Shown: positions 47,985 through 57,882 of the stretch, one piece after another
Layout of the letters: every line of letters begins with the position of its first letter
Position numbering within the stretch: position 1 is the stretch's first letter
DNA from: an uncultured Methanosarcinaceae archaeon
Lineage (GTDB): Archaea > Halobacteriota > Methanosarcinia > Methanosarcinales > Methanosarcinaceae
Direction: 5' to 3'
DNA length: 64,000 nucleotides
Assembly: GCA_963833425.1 (NCBI GenBank)
Contig: CAWHXP010000008.1
Location: forward strand, 212,578-276,577
Notes under the pieces: model-generated
Told to the model about the DNA's origin: nothing
What the model saw: the letters and a program-made list of their open reading frames with translations, nothing else
Database searches by the model: none
Program-made: the position numbers and the translations under genes

Positions 47985-49451
47985 ATGGCGAAAATCAAAT
48001 ATAAAAGTACAGTTCCTGTAAGAGAAGACCGATTGAACACCACAATCACATACTGTGGAACTGCAAGTGAGCTTGTGAATTTAACAAAGAGAAAATGTTT
48101 GAAGGTAAAAAATCGTGCATTCTCTCAGACAACTTTCTGTCAAGAGTGGCTGGCGATATTTACACTGGCAACGATAAAAGATGCAGTTATAATTACTCAT
48201 GCGCCTGTAGGATGCATCAGCTCACTGCCATTTATTAATATATTCAAGCGTTTCGGGCAAATTCTAAGGGGAGAAACACCTTTAAATGGAAAATGGATTT
48301 CTACCAACCTTACTGATACAGAGGCTATTCATGGAGGAGAAGACAAACTTAAAGAAGCAATTTTAGAGGCAGATAAAAGACACAGTCCAAATACAATATT
48401 CGTATTTTCATCATGTGTTGCTGGAATCATAGGTGAGAACATTAATGCAATAATGAAACAGGTTCAAAAAGGAGTATCTGCAACAGTGATCCCCGTATAC
48501 TGTGATGGATTCAAATCAAAAGTATGGGCATCTGGATACGATGGATCATTTCAGGGCGCTTTGAATCATCTAATTAAAAAACCTAAAAAGAGAATGGCTG
48601 ATTTAATCAATGTAATTAACCCACTTACAGTAGGAAGGCTTGATGAAGTTGAAATAGAAAGGCTTCTGGATAAATTAGGACTTAAAGCAAATTTCATCCC
48701 AAACTTTACTACTACAGAGAAGATTGGAAAATCATCTGAAGCAGCCCTTACTACAAGTATGTGTCCAACTTTCAGTGAATACTTTGCAAAATCATTAGAA
48801 GAACGTTATCATGTACCTTATACTCAAAAAATAATGCCTGTAGGTCTTGATAATACTGATTTGTGGCTTAGAGAAATTGGAAAATTCCTTGGAAAAGAGG
48901 ATGAAGTGGAAACAGTCATAAAAGCGGAGAGAGAAAGAGTTGAACCAAAAATAGAAAAACTTAGAGAAAAACTTGAGGGAAAAAGGGTATTCGTAAGTGC
49001 AGGACAATCAAGGGCAATAGGAATTCCAAATCTTCTTGCAGATTTGGGAATGGATATAGTGGGCATTACCGCATATCACTATGATGAAGTAATTTTTGAA
49101 AGCTTTGCGAATTTAGCGAAGAGATGTGGAAACTTCTGTACCAACGTTGCAAATGTACAGCCATTTGAGCAGACAAATATATTAAATAAAGAACAGCCTG
49201 ATTTTTATTTTGGTCATGTAGGAGAATCAATTTGGGCTGCAAAACAAGGATTTCCTACAGCCATGATTTACAATTTATCAGTTATCTATGCCGGCTATAA
49301 TGGCATTATATCATTTGGAAATAGAATTCTTAACTTGCTTAACAATCCCTCATTCAGTAAAAAGCTTGCTGAACATTCAAAGCCAATATATCGTGAAAGT
49401 TGGTTAAACGAAAATCCATTCAAGTACCATAAAGGGGAGGAATTAAAATGA
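47985..49451 (+). CDS. Nitrogenase component 1 alpha-like protein (NifD/NifE-like, non-canonical)
   Basis: Cys positions FSQTTFC, HAPVGC, FSSCVAGIIG and TSMCPT; STNLTDTEAIHGGEDKL; YNG near C-terminus. Confidence 0.88.
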   Translation: MAKIKYKSTVPVREDRLNTTITYCGTASELVNLTKRKCLKVKNRAFSQTTFCQEWLAIFTLATIKDAVIITHAPVGCISSLPFINIFKRFGQILRGETPLNGKWISTNLTDTEAIHGGEDKLKEAILEADKRHSPNTIFVFSSCVAGIIGENINAIMKQVQKGVSATVIPVYCDGFKSKVWASGYDGSFQGALNHLIKKPKKRMADLINVINPLTVGRLDEVEIERLLDKLGLKANFIPNFTTTEKIGKSSEAALTTSMCPTFSEYFAKSLEERYHVPYTQKIMPVGLDNTDLWLREIGKFLGKEDEVETVIKAERERVEPKIEKLREKLEGKRVFVSAGQSRAIGIPNLLADLGMDIVGITAYHYDEVIFESFANLAKRCGNFCTNVANVQPFEQTNILNKEQPDFYFGHVGESIWAAKQGFPTAMIYNLSVIYAGYNGIISFGNRILNLLNNPSFSKKLAEHSKPIYRESWLNENPFKYHKGEELK

Positions 49452-50377
49452 GCAAAATTATCGAAAGTCCTCGATTTTCATGTGCCCTCGGAGGTGCTTT
49501 GAGCACTATAACCGCAATAGAAAGCTATGTCCCGATTATTCATGCTGGACCTGGCTGTGGTGTTCAGATTTTCTATGGACAGAGCTTTGCTGGAGGTTTT
49601 AGGGGATCTGGATGGATTGGAGGAGTGAGCGTTCCAAGCACAAACACATATGAAAAAGAAGTTGTGTTTGGAGGAGAAAAACGGCTAAAAGAGCAAGTTG
49701 AAAAAACAATTGAGTTTATTGAAGGAGATAGGTATGTGGTACTTACTGGTTGTACAGCAGAACTTATTGGGGATGATGTGCGTTCAGTATTAAATGAATT
49801 TAAAGATAAGTTAGTCATCTATGCTCAAACTGCAGGTTTCAGGGGTTCAAGCTATATAGGTTATGAAATTCTGCTGGAAGCATTCATAAATCAGATAGTT
49901 GAAGAAAAGCCCAGAAAAAAAGGACTTGTAAATGTATTTGGAATAGTACCGTCTCAAGATGTATTTTGGGAAGGTAACCTTACTGAGATAGAGCGGATAC
50001 TAAATAGTATTGGTTTAGAAGTTAACACACTCTTTAATGGAAAGAAAATCGAAGACTTATCATCTGCTGTTTTAAATATTGTACTATCACCCTGGGTGGG
50101 TGTTAGAGCAGCTGAAAAGTTGAAAGAACAATTTAAAATACCTTATATTGTTAATCCGCTTCCAATAGGAGTTACTGAGACAAATTCATTCCTGGAAAAG
50201 GTTGGTACTGCATTGGGGATAGATGTTAGTGATGCAACTGCGAAGGAAGAGGAGAAAACCTACAAATCCATTGATAAAGTCGCAGATTTTGTTGTGGATC
50301 TTGATGTGCAACTTCGATTTGCAACCATCACGTCGATCCATTGCTGGATTTCACTGTCATTGATTGCGCCAGAGTAG
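49448..50377 (+). pseudogene. Nitrogenase component 1 beta-like protein (NifK/NifN-like), 3'-truncated
   Basis: PRFSCALGGA, HAGPGCG, STN...VVFGGEKRL and LTGCTAELIGDD motifs; only 309 aa, and the last codons are antisense of the ABC binding-protein gene. Confidence 0.82.
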
Positions 50378-51094
50378 CTGTAATAATGGGAATTCGCCGT
50401 AGGAAGCCCAACGTTTTTTGCTGTCAATTCACCTGATTCTTTTGGATGATCATTTGACCATCTTCAGCATCTTTATATGCTTTAGTAAATGCCCGTACGT
50501 CATTAGGATGGTTCTTGATAAATCATTCTCGAGGTCCGAGCAGATACCAAGTGCACAAATCGCAATCTTTGGCTTATGCCCATTAGCCACAAGTTCCTGG
50601 AAAGTATGGTATGAGCTCGAATTGAGTACAAGCCAGTGCATGTGATATTTCATGATGTTTCCTTCGAATGGTTCAGAACCACCTTGAACTACCGCTTTCA
50701 CTTTTGCACCACTCTATAAGAGATTAGTAATAGTGTTTGGATGTCCATCAACAACATTAGTTTGCCCTGAAATGAGAGCTGTTGGTTGCAATGACCAGTC
50801 AAGGTGCCCCTGATCCTGAGAATCGATACCGCTAGCAACGAAGAAACCTTTCTGCATACCAACGTACCAAGGAGTCCCTGCGCAATCTTTGTTGACATTT
50901 GCCTTTATAGTAATATTAGGAGCTTGGGAAAGGTTCTGAAGATCTGTTTTCACTGCCGTGCCGATAGCATCCGTCTTGTTCTGGATACAACCTGTCACAA
51001 AAACTAATAACACAATGCTTATAACTACTATTCCCATTGCTAATATGTGTTTGTTGCTTGGTTTTTTGAGAATATCATTCATGATATACACCAA
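50322..51094 (-). pseudogene. ABC transporter substrate-binding lipoprotein (SsuA/TauA/NMT1-like), disrupted
   Basis: Lipobox-like LLVFVTGC; in-frame TAG at 50714-50716; internal deletion/frameshift near 50525; C-terminal VGLPTANSHYYSYSGAINDSEIQQWIDVMV fragment. Confidence 0.75.
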
Positions 51095-51129
51095 AACTTT
51101 TCAAAATAGAAATTAAGATCAGATTAAAA

Positions 51130-55908: not shown

Positions 55909-56218
55909 TTTAAAAATACTAATTATATGATTAAGTGTTATCATAAATTGATATGAAAAAATGAGAAAAAACAGAATGATAAGAACAAGTTGTCTCCGTA
56001 AGCTATTGATAAACTGCACATAGAATATTTTCAACTTATAATCTTATTATTCTAAGAATTTGTTCAAAAATACAAATCTATCTTCTGGATACAGTTTGAA
56101 CAAAGAATAAAACCTCAAAAACGAATAAAGCATGAAACGAGTAGCACGACATTACCAAAAATTAAGATTGATAGATGCACCCTTCAACGATTGGTATCGT
56201 TAATATTTGGTGGTTTAA

Positions 56219-56956
56219 GTGAATGATGATATCTTTGAACAAATTCATAAAAGATTGACTGTAGAACAAATAATGACCCCAAAAAAAGAGTTTTATTTCC
56301 ATCCTCAGGATTCTAAATCTCATAAAGAAATAACTACTTTTCCTATCGAGAATGAAGACGGATCAATTATTAAATACTTTATCAATTATTAAATACTTTA
56401 ATAGTAAAGGTTCCACGCAGCACTATATATTACCAAATAAGATGGTTTCAAAAGACCTTGATATAATGTCTTTAATCAAAATACTGGATAGAAACTCCTT
56501 TTTCTTTGTAATCCATGATGAAATAGTAGGGATAGTTACTGTTGCAGACTTAAGAAAGGTAGCTGTAAGGATGTTCTTTTATTTGCTACTTTACAGTCAG
56601 GAAAATCAGATGAAGGTTTTTTTTAAAGAAAGACTGTCTGAAGCTGACTGTATAGAACTTGCAAAACCTAAATGCAGAATGCAAGAAAAAAGTATGAGCT
56701 TTCTGTTTTTGAAGAGTGCAGTTTTTACGATTACCTGGTAGCCTTGAAAAATTATGATGCTTTTAAACAAAAAAATGGTTTTTCAATAAGAGACATTGAG
56801 CAATTCGGTGGTCTTGATAAATTCAGAAATTGGATCATGCACCCTTCAAGAGCGGAAGTCAAAGTGAAAATGGACTTTGAAATTGATTACAACCATTACT
56901 TATTCAAGCAGCTTGATAGAATCCAGAAGCTAGAAATATTATTGAAAAATAGCTGA
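56219..56956 (+). pseudogene. CBS-domain protein with C-terminal HEPN-like RxxxxH motif, frameshifted
   Basis: LTVEQIMTP...IVGIVTVADL CBS motifs; FRNWIMHP; frame broken by a 19-bp tandem duplication (56362-56399) and again near 56670. Confidence 0.7.
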
Positions 56957-57122
56957 GACTTGTTCAATCTCAAAAACATTTCTGCAAAAAAATTAAAAAA
57001 TTTGTAGTTACGTGCCTGAGATGAGCTTCGTGCTATTCAATGACTTTGAAACTGTGAATTCATTTCAGGATACAACAGAATCGAAGCTTGCTTGAAAGAT
57101 ACCTAATCCTCCATAGATTAAT

Positions 57123-57882
57123 CCCACTTGTTGTAGACAACACGAGTGCTGTGGGCTTGTTCAGCCTATTGATCATGGAGCAGATATCGTTGTGCATTCT
57201 GTAACCAAATTTATCGGTGGGCATGGAAATTCAATCGGTGGTTCTATAGTCGATTCCGGAAAATTCTCTTGGAACAATGGCAAGTTTCCAGAATTAACAG
57301 ATCCTGATCCCAGTTATCACGGCTTGAAATACTGGGATACGTTTCCAGAATTTCCGGGTCTTGATAATGTAGCATTCATTTTTAAAGTACGGTTGCAACT
57401 TCTTAGGGACATAGGTGCTGCTCTTTCCCCCTTTAATGCTTTTCTATTACTTCAGGGGCTTGAAACACTGCGCCTGAGATACAGAGACACTCAGATAACG
57501 CCCTCAAGGTAGCGAAATTCCTTTCAAACCATCCAAAAGTCTCATGGGTTAATTATCCAGGTTTACCGGATCATCCAAGTCATGGGCTTGCATCCAAATA
57601 TCTTATAGGTGGTTATGGTGTATTGATAGGTTTTTGGTGTGAAAGGCGGTATAGAAGCAGGTAAAAGCTTTATAAACAATCTAAAGCTGTTTCCACATGT
57701 TGCCAACATAGAGATTCCAAAAGTCTTGTCATTCATCTTGCAACTACCACACACCAGCAGCTAACCCCAACTGAGCAAGAGGCAACAGGCGTTACGCCAG
57801 ATTACATACGCCTTTCCATTATAGTATTGAGGATGTAGATGATATGATCTCAGATCTTGAACAAGCTCTTGAAAAAGTTTGA
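57123..57882 (+). pseudogene. metY: O-acetylhomoserine sulfhydrylase (MetY), 5'-truncated and frameshifted
   Basis: [25 protein letters not shown] (PLP Lys), [21 protein letters not shown] and [14 protein letters not shown] fragments. Confidence 0.88.

Follow-up and report, generated by a model that had tools for sequence, protein, structure and literature searches.

Genes and damage at the locus

The 64,000-nucleotide window analyzed here (G000:C8:212578-276577) lies in the genome of an uncultured Methanosarcinaceae archaeon (4.07 Mb in 21 contigs, with a completeness score of 80%). It carries a NifD-like and a NifK-like gene, called NflD and NflK or simply D and K below, beside ABC transporter genes and several gene remnants (Table 1). 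A first-pass annotation of this DNA had proposed a partly destroyed nitrogenase-like system for scavenging organosulfur compounds. The two reading frames overlap at the stop of D and the start of K, an arrangement shared with NifDK and NifEN, and both proteins exceed the 28.6-bit gathering cut-off of their common superfamily, PF00148, which matches no other gene in the window. However, all of the NCBIfam equivalog models for nifD, nifE, nifK, nifN, vnf, anf, Bch and CfbD fall far below their cut-offs: 164.8 against 653.55 bits for nifD, 181.8 against 505.1 for nifE and 73.5 against 427.3 for nifK. The nifN model gives K 41.6 bits against a cut-off of 326.8, and the CfbD model reaches 40 bits. 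D is 27% identical to the NifD and to the NifE of its own genome, whose canonical nifHDKEN genes lie on a different contig (C12). Among all PDB sequences, the closest solved structure for D is MarD from the methylthio-alkane reductase (MAR) of Rhodospirillum rubrum (9FMG_A and 9D9U_A, 288 bits, E 1e-84), compared with 141 bits at most for NifD structures, and the closest solved relative of K is MarK (212 bits). PDB entry 9FMG is described in PMC12552129 as the MarDK2H2 complex. The earlier judgment that the pair is neither canonical Nif, Vnf or Anf nor NifEN thus holds.

The metal-ligand residues of both subunits have been kept. D retains its P-cluster cysteines Cys52, Cys77 and Cys144, and three cysteines of K align with those of MarK and NifK, in agreement with what the first reading had noticed. 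Cys260 of D takes the position of the cofactor ligands MarD Cys270 and NifD Cys275, and His411 that of MarD His429, which sits in a loop specific to MarD ("Loop I"). The methanogen rows of the alignment that belong to the same clade, which we give the working name W-type, share all of these D residues together with a tryptophan at MarD W195 and a histidine at MarD H375. D is roughly 40% identical to MarD, as estimated by eye from the alignment, and differs from it at H194, S196, F199 and F374, which are replaced by valine, alanine, tyrosine and tyrosine. It also has a glycine, Gly410, ahead of His411. The Gly-His pair occurs in 6/6 methanogen W-type rows, as opposed to Arg-His in four IV-A-type rows. 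The MarD ligand identities, and Arg428 as a proposed hallmark of MAR, follow the available text of PMC12552129, and the list of compared residues that of bioRxiv 10.64898/2026.08.20.746119.

Past D, the locus is damaged. Intact K proteins of relatives have 422 residues, and in tblastn the window matches residues 1-304 only, ending at 50359. The 118 C-terminal residues are gone, the final codons of the open reading frame (ORF) read from foreign sequence, and the rest of K is absent elsewhere in the assembly. The truncated gene is fused tail-to-tail with the 3' part of a substrate-binding protein gene, itself a pseudogene: intact homologues align to it over their residues 3-178, 227-273 and 267-339, an in-frame stop interrupts it at 50714-50716, and about 70 residues are missing. 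For comparison we used Logan contigs from three peat or permafrost metagenomes that are 90-99% alike to the window and cover both genes, the uncovered parts being uninformative. The K-side contigs (X1, X2 and X3) continue past 50332 with one common sequence unlike that of the window, and the binding-protein-side contigs (X1 and X3) diverge from the window before 50317. Additionally, one relative's contig is 240 letters longer than the window at 50522/50525, and two relatives are 33 letters longer at 50966/50967. Judged against these wild populations, the window appears to carry a tail-to-tail fusion and two in-frame deletions of 240 and 33 bp.

Given that K is missing 118 residues at its C-terminus, that the binding-protein gene is disrupted and that the CBS-domain and metY genes are fragments, we conclude that the W-type system of this strain cannot assemble or work as encoded. 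The first-pass annotation was right that the system is partly destroyed, as the truncation of K attests, but the breakage of the binding-protein and CBS genes had escaped it, as had a small upstream ORF described below. D itself shows no decay, with 1 unique change at sites otherwise invariant across 36 clade members, so the damage is recent or D has been kept by chance. At 90% identity or more, contigs from an RNA library match the relatives' D, K and binding-protein genes; such libraries can contain DNA, so the hint of expression is weak.

The permease and ATPase genes next to the pseudogene are intact. The permease scores 132 bits with the SaoP model (cut-off 295), 107 with NtrB, 102 with TauC (cut-off 342) and 98 with SsuC (cut-off 347), and the ATPase 244 with the TauB-type model (cut-off 357), 240 with NtrCD and 230 with SaoA, each of these permease and ATPase scores being below its cut-off. 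Their predicted membership in the Ssu/Tau group is therefore at the level of the family only. The SAO system was considered and set aside, its likeness being of the family kind and below threshold.

The small ORF upstream of D is a new detail of this locus. It ends in a run of four cysteine codons, and Cys-tailed ORFs of 28-30 codons precede D in 6/6 aligned Methanosarcina W-type loci, with a stop-to-D spacing of 175-181 nt, a conserved basic N-terminus and tails that read CCCC, CCC, CGCC or RCC. Genome-wide, 5 ATG-initiated ORFs of at most 80 residues end in three or more cysteine codons, and the one that ends in four is the ORF 5' of D. An orphan copy adjoins the CBS gene of genome G007, where the W-type pair is missing (L054 11837-11926, minus strand). 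We did not find the ORF 5' of the clusters from Methanobacteria or from contigs titled Firmicutes; it has 0 Pfam matches, and no protein of 30-33 residues in a large protein collection shares words with it. It may be a leader that senses cysteine or a small Cys-tailed carrier protein, either of which would fit a role in sulfur metabolism, and it offers a simple regulatory test of sulfur versus nitrogen. An attenuator-like fold between the ORF and D was rejected: RNAalifold gave -1.27 kcal/mol with 0 compensatory pairs, and the single-sequence folds disagree. A CCTCC-TTTTT element is conserved 25-35 nt past the stop in 5/6 loci, and the window reads CCTCTTTTT.

Table 1. Positions of the genes, remnants and junction at the nitrogenase-like locus (window coordinates unless a locus is named).
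Feature	Position	Strand	Evidence and remarks
Small ORF, 30 codons, ends Cys-Cys-Cys-Cys-stop	47717..47809	+	Alternative ATG at 47696; 175 nt 5' of the D start
Copies of the Cys-tailed ORF	L024 5631-5720; L025 9733-9819; L028 9731-9820; L026 stop 7760; L051 stop 14116		
NifD-like (NflD) putative catalytic subunit, intact, 488 aa	47985..49451	+	PF00148 285.9 bits, whole profile
NifK-like (NflK), truncated, ORF of 309 aa	49448..50377	+	PF00148 180.7 bits, restricted to profile positions 1-265 of 399
Junction, 16 nt common to both sides; K fused tail-to-tail with 3' part of binding-protein gene	50317..50332	.	Metagenome contigs
SsuA/NMT1-family substrate-binding protein pseudogene	about 50290..51094	-	Three pieces in different frames
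ABC permease (nitrate/sulfonate/taurine family), intact	51130..51951	-	PF00528 76.5 bits; 84% identical to G007 permease
ABC ATPase, intact	52001..52885	-	PF00005 119.7 bits; 80% identical to G007 ATPase
YHS-domain protein, 152 aa	55205..55663	-	PF04945 60 bits
CBS-domain protein pseudogene, three reading frames	56219..56953	+	tblastn with intact 239-aa L025 protein: three pieces, 76-81% identity
metY (O-acetylhomoserine sulfhydrylase) remnant, 3' part only	57106..57873	+	TIGR01326 183 bits against a cut-off of 495

Phylogenetic placement and gene neighborhoods

We placed D in a 99-row tree (FastTree) and a 46-row tree (IQ-TREE in quick mode with a mixture model). Their one labelled reference is P0186, the Clostridium bornimense protein WP_044035919.1, which Table S1 of PMC13753814 assigns to Group A (IV-A); R. 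rubrum MarD, NfaD, IsrD and labelled IV-D and IV-E proteins lie outside the row set. Both trees resolve three large groups, of which the first contains the D type found on contig C16 of this genome and the second, with 100% support, contains P0186. The third is a superclade with 95% support, and within it the window D falls in a clade supported at 99%, whose rows carry Methanosarcina, Methanobacterium, Methanobrevibacter and Methanospirillum titles, joined in the 99-row tree by one 1.9-kb contig titled Ignavibacteria. The neighbor of the W clade is a bacterial clade (a Fibrobacteraceae metagenome-assembled genome, MAG, and others) that is 45-48% identical to it, and when the bacterial sister P0052 was used as a query, no protein from a named isolate turned up. 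Against MarD, P0186 reaches 480 bits, on a par with the 480-493 bits that it scores against deep members of its own clade, and the window D scores 288 against MarD and 309-346 against eight compared members of the P0186 clade. From these scores we group MarD with the IV-A clade or adjacent to it, and place the window protein elsewhere; in both trees the window clade is outside that of P0186. On sequence grounds, the pair would be a rare, uncharacterized and, by record title, mostly archaeal clade of Group IV nitrogenase-like (NFL) proteins, distinct from Group IV-C MAR.

This placement bears on the explanation that the first-pass annotation had in view, namely that the locus encodes a true Group IV-C MAR that would release methanethiol from dimethyl sulfide, ethyl methyl sulfide or methylthio-ethanol. 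MarD and MarK are the best solved relatives of the window pair, the six P-cluster cysteines and the equivalents of Cys270 and His429 are all kept, and a metY remnant is close by. Nevertheless, we consider membership in MAR unlikely and do not retain it: a IV-A protein is far nearer to MarD than the window D is, glycine stands in place of the hallmark Arg428, and four further MarD positions are altered. The minimal marBHDK set is also incomplete, as the window has no NifH-like or NifB-like gene. Volatile thioethers should not require an ABC importer, and in the text available of PMC13753814 the activity was detected only in IV-C.

W-type genes are scarce. At 84% identity or more, D occurs in 7/59 genomes of the genus, in 2/401 sampled genomes of the phylum (both within the genus) and in 6/301 sampled genomes of the phylum that contains the Methanobacterium MAG described below. 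In one of the genus copies (G057) the D gene is frameshifted, so that 2/7, the window included, are damaged. The loci closest to the window come from records titled Methanosarcina, and Methanosarcina genomes may hold up to four D types: W, B (39-40% identity), C (35-37%) and a IV-A-like type that is 58% identical to P0186. All seven Methanosarcina genomes with the W type also carry a B- or C-type pair.

The partners that such a pair would need lie outside the window. As the first-pass annotation had stated, nifH, nifI, nifE/N and molybdate transporter genes are missing there: PF00142 (NifH) matches 0 genes inside it, with genome-wide matches on C12, C16, C3, C4 and at C8:371 kb, and a Pfam scan of the 41 window ORFs found no PII/NifI, NifE/N or molybdate transporter. 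The genome has cfbCD at C8:370-372 kb, NifB at C2:85030-85857, and on C16 (L057, G000:C16:80000-98931) a second nitrogenase-like H, D and K set with its own SsuA-family ABC genes. The L057 set is the sole nitrogenase-like H, D and K of this genome besides nif, cfb and a dead cluster on C3 and C4, and the locus additionally holds a frameshifted CBS gene, a NifH fragment and a metY fragment. Its D is of the C type, with a cysteine (motif TCPFQGG) where MarD has the His429 ligand.

We compared gene order across 17 relatives' loci and the window. ABC genes stand beside the W-type pair in five (L027, L032, L033, L034 with a permease piece, and the window), and a NifH-like gene lies within L025, L027, L034, L035 and L051. 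In L027, a Methanobacterium MAG, the order is ATPase, permease, SsuA-family binding protein, C-type DK, W-type DK, CCG/HdrD-like protein, EamA, C-type DK, NifH-like and cysK, the last at 454 bits and above its cut-off. L032 and L033 (Methanobacteria) read ATPase, permease, binding protein, W-type DK and permease, and in L034 and L035, on MAG contigs titled Firmicutes, the NifH-like gene is immediately 5' of the W-type pair. Among Methanosarcina loci, L025 has YHS, NifH-like, B-type DK, CBS on the opposite strand, a 289-aa protein and W-type DK; L051 has NifH-like, C-type DK, methyltransferase, CBS and W-type DK; and L026 and L028 have the W-type pair with no ABC or H gene within 8-10 kb. In 4/8 Methanosarcina loci (L054, L074, L076 and L078), a full-length metY is separated from C-type DK by 2-7 kb, and L057 has a remnant.

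The genes on the far side of the window transporter recur as well. YHS proteins adjoin the nitrogenase-like clusters of L025 and of G007, where the order is ATPase, permease, binding protein, EamA, YHS proteins, NifH-like and B-type DK. Intact CBS genes flank DK genes in L025, L051, L054 and L080, and the window CBS pseudogene is 91% identical in DNA to a copy at C16:81262-82281. The metY remnant that the first-pass annotation had reported is confirmed: it spans positions 184-403 of the TIGR01326 profile, is interrupted by several stops or frameshifts and is 89% identical in DNA to C19:14704-15470. The intact housekeeping metY occupies C19:14192-15457, and the window piece is a partial duplicate of its 3' part.

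In the complete genome G007, a 60-kb stretch (L052-L054, G007:C1:1505000-1565000) forms a rich sulfur-linked nitrogenase-like island. DK pairs of the B, IV-A-like and C types occur there together with two Ssu-like binding proteins, a five-YHS-domain protein, a PKD-YHS protein, EamA, ThiI, the homocysteine-synthesis protein HcyBio and metY.

Proposed reaction and competing explanations

Because DK pairs of relatives lie near Ssu-like importers, NifH-like genes, cysK or metY, a reductase for sulfur acquisition is the best reading of the locus. We propose, with a probability of about 0.6, that the window holds the decayed remnant of a modular methanogen "nitrogenase-like island" whose W-type reductase served in sulfur acquisition, most likely by cleaving C-S bonds. 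By analogy with MarHDK (PMC12552129) and nitrogenase, a dimer of an H subunit, NflH, would hydrolyze ATP and reduce a P-cluster at the D/K interface, held by three cysteines from each side; in many genomes NflH is common to a second DK pair, and in this genome the sole candidate is on C16. Electrons would then pass to an [Fe8S9C]-type cluster, built by NifB and bound to Cys260 and His411 of D, where a small substrate delivered by the importer of the Ssu/Tau/nitrate family would undergo reductive cleavage, most likely of a C-S bond. The freed sulfur species would enter the synthesis of cysteine or homocysteine through CysK or MetY. The importer and the cysK and metY neighbors argue for an organosulfur substrate that is anionic and non-volatile. 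Group IV NFL genes are described, for bacteria, as generally co-localized with genes of cysteine and methionine synthesis in PMC13753814.

Several characterized systems resemble the locus in part. The MarHDK(B) system of R. rubrum (IV-C) has the same six P-cluster cysteines, the same [Fe8S9C] ligands at equal alignment positions and, if the relatives of the window are considered, a neighborhood of sulfur genes; it differs in that the window has no marB or marH alongside, an ABC importer, an archaeal host and a truncated K. For gene arrangement, the closest functional analogy may be IsrBHDK with SsuCAB from Rhodobacter capsulatus (IV-F), in which an NFL protein is paired with an Ssu-family importer for an anionic organosulfur substrate (PMC11423573). 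The window protein would nonetheless be Mar-like in its clusters, since IsrD, as described there, has 1/3 of the D-side P-cluster cysteines (the Cys88 equivalent) and no equivalents of Cys275 and His442, all of which the window D has; IsrB, moreover, is a BciD-like radical SAM enzyme, and none is found at the window locus. An orphan DK pair with no H or B gene of its own has a counterpart in NflDK3 of Rhodopseudomonas palustris (RPA2363-64), which adjoins an O-acetylhomoserine sulfhydrylase gene, is induced by sulfur limitation and has no substrate assigned to it in the text available of bioRxiv 10.64898/2026.08.20.746119. At 52-56% identity to MarDK1, NflDK3 is close to the MAR clade, and the window D is far less similar to MarD than NflDK3 is. 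C. bornimense is likewise listed with one H and B set for two DK pairs (Table S1 of PMC13753814). Both of these hosts are bacteria, and that of the window is an archaeon.

A number of observations weigh against the sulfur-acquisition reading. Cleavage of C-S bonds by the W-type clade would be an extension from related sequences. The intact binding proteins of relatives match SsuA weakly (SsuA_fam at 65-103 bits against a cut-off of 163.5; PDB SsuA at E about 1e-5), and their family also carries nitrate, bicarbonate and taurine. The window ABC genes are orthologous to those of the B-type cluster in G007, and the junction is rearranged, so the link between this DK pair and its transporter may be secondary. 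ABC genes are missing from seven loci whose flanks extend to 3 kb or more (L024, L025, L026, L028, L035, L037 and L051), a further six being too short or duplicates, and the compared genomes are kin, so that counts overstate their independence. The metY and CBS remnants are duplicated fragments. Since no contig of 4 runs bridges the window junction, and none connects K to the binding-protein gene, there is a residual chance of misassembly, with the 16-nt overlap an unlikely cause of one. Finally, pdxS is split by a single frameshift into two ORFs (L057 13271-14190), as is an AI-2E transporter (window 33677-34586), hinting at assembly indel errors that may affect some of the pseudogenes; this caveat applies to the CBS and metY calls and not to the large deletions. 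The linkage to sulfur genes claimed by the first-pass annotation survives as a recurrent feature of other methanogens, whose DK pairs keep company with Ssu-family ABC genes, cysK and metY, and is weakened at the window itself, where the ABC adjacency may be rearranged and metY is a partial duplicate.

Might the W-type pair instead modify a tetrapyrrole or another cofactor, such as a variant of coenzyme F430, in the manner of CfbCD, DPOR and COR? The hosts are methanogens, an S-adenosylmethionine (SAM) methyltransferase lies 3' of DK in L028, L051 and L054, and a CCG/HdrD-like protein accompanies L027, L054 and L079. Yet tetrapyrrole NFLs, as portrayed in the available text of PMC13474568, have neither the cofactor Cys and His ligands nor the full P-cluster set, both of which are present in the window D. 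The CfbD score is negligible, the clade is rare and an importer adjoins it; additionally, 2/7 copies in the genus are broken, which argues against a core cofactor pathway. We regard this explanation as quite improbable.

Equally little speaks for a NifEN-like scaffold or maturase that would make the cofactor for a neighboring catalytic B- or C-type pair. The W-type pair does lie beside a second DK pair, with one NifH-like gene in common, in L025, L027, L032 and L051, and the co-occurrence with B- or C-type pairs in 7/7 Methanosarcina genomes would suit such a division of labor. However, K retains three P-cluster cysteines, compared with the single one that NifN presumably keeps, and D has the His ligand that B-type D is without and that C-type D replaces with cysteine. 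The nifE and nifN scores are far below their cut-offs, and in L034 and L035 the W type alone sits directly behind its own NifH-like gene. A scaffold role is accordingly very unlikely.

An Nfa-like role in acquiring nitrogen, or a reaction with an organometal(loid) compound, can be given a similarly slight chance. In its favor, nitrate and cyanate-type anions are also among the substrates of the transporter family, the top permease model is SaoP from a proposed organometallic system (10.1101/2022.07.06.499078), YHS-domain proteins accompany the clusters, and PMC13474568 links one Group IV-A enzyme to N2 fixation. Against it, no PII/NifI or nitrogen gene lies beside any cluster examined, the SAO-related scores are all far below cut-off (132 against 295), the recurrent metabolic neighbors are cysK and metY, and Cys codons are strung together in the ORF upstream of D.

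Returning to sulfur acquisition by a W-type reductase, a broader form of the idea, which we hold to be doubtful, is that an undescribed NFL clade with an L-cluster-type cofactor in Methanosarcina, Methanobacterium, Methanobrevibacter and Methanospirillum, together with Ssu-like importers, cleaves non-volatile organosulfur compounds for sulfur assimilation, releasing a hydrocarbon or alcohol independently of methyl-coenzyme M reductase, and that in Methanosarcina its expression is tuned to cysteine supply through the Cys-codon mini-ORF. Methanogens are usually thought to take up sulfur as sulfide. If the idea is true, an ATP-driven, cofactor-rich reductase with its own importer would give peat and gut methanogens a route to scavenge organosulfur, and would extend to archaea the question of how nitrogenase-type clusters came to serve purposes beyond N2 reduction. 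In the literature that we found, C-S-cutting nitrogenase-like enzymes (MAR and ISR) are confined to bacteria, and our search yielded no account of DK-type NFL systems in archaea apart from Nif and Cfb, with the qualification that supplementary trees of the relevant papers may include such sequences; PMC9431491 and PMC3464626 contained no pertinent material. The available parts of PMC13474568 and PMC13753814 give no known reaction for the other Group IV clades, and those of PMC13753814 name IV-A, IV-D, IV-E and IV-F in this respect. Because the window copy is broken, it is useful as a guide to clusters that are intact, such as those of the Methanobacterium MAG (L027), of Methanosarcina (L025 and L028) and of the peat populations.

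Other features of the window and genome

Two genes upstream of D had been tied to the system by the first-pass annotation, a sulfatase (38703-41057; PF00884, 228 bits) and its possible maturase, a radical-SAM/SPASM protein (34746-35843, minus strand). Both are present, but they are not conserved neighbors, being found in 0/5 Methanosarcina loci with at least 5 kb 5' of D (L024, L025, L026, L028 and L051). The match of the radical-SAM/SPASM protein to the radical SAM profile is confined to the second half (positions 66-165); the protein has a SEC-C motif at its C-terminus and may be truncated at its N-terminus.

Searches for further remnants (NifH-like, B-type DK, EamA and others) at 52.9-64 kb found none at E up to 0.05, and no Rfam families were found in the window. 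A common operator 5' of D and of the YHS gene is unconvincing: a 12-mer occurs 4 times genome-wide against about 2 expected, and a 10-mer 44 times against about 29, both expectations being rough estimates.

Elsewhere in the genome, a D/K/H nitrogenase-like cluster with many stops occurs at G000:C3:551309-554496 and, with identical scores, at G000:C4:26146-29333; it looks like a duplicated, dead copy. Within the window, a tyrosine integrase (27960-29096, minus strand) and a DDE transposase fragment (62540-63052, plus strand) bracket the studied region, and the 53-64 kb segment has few ORFs; the bracketed region may be a decaying island. A 69-nt unit is repeated three times in tandem at 60088-60294, its copies 93-100% alike, within an AT-rich, gene-poor stretch.

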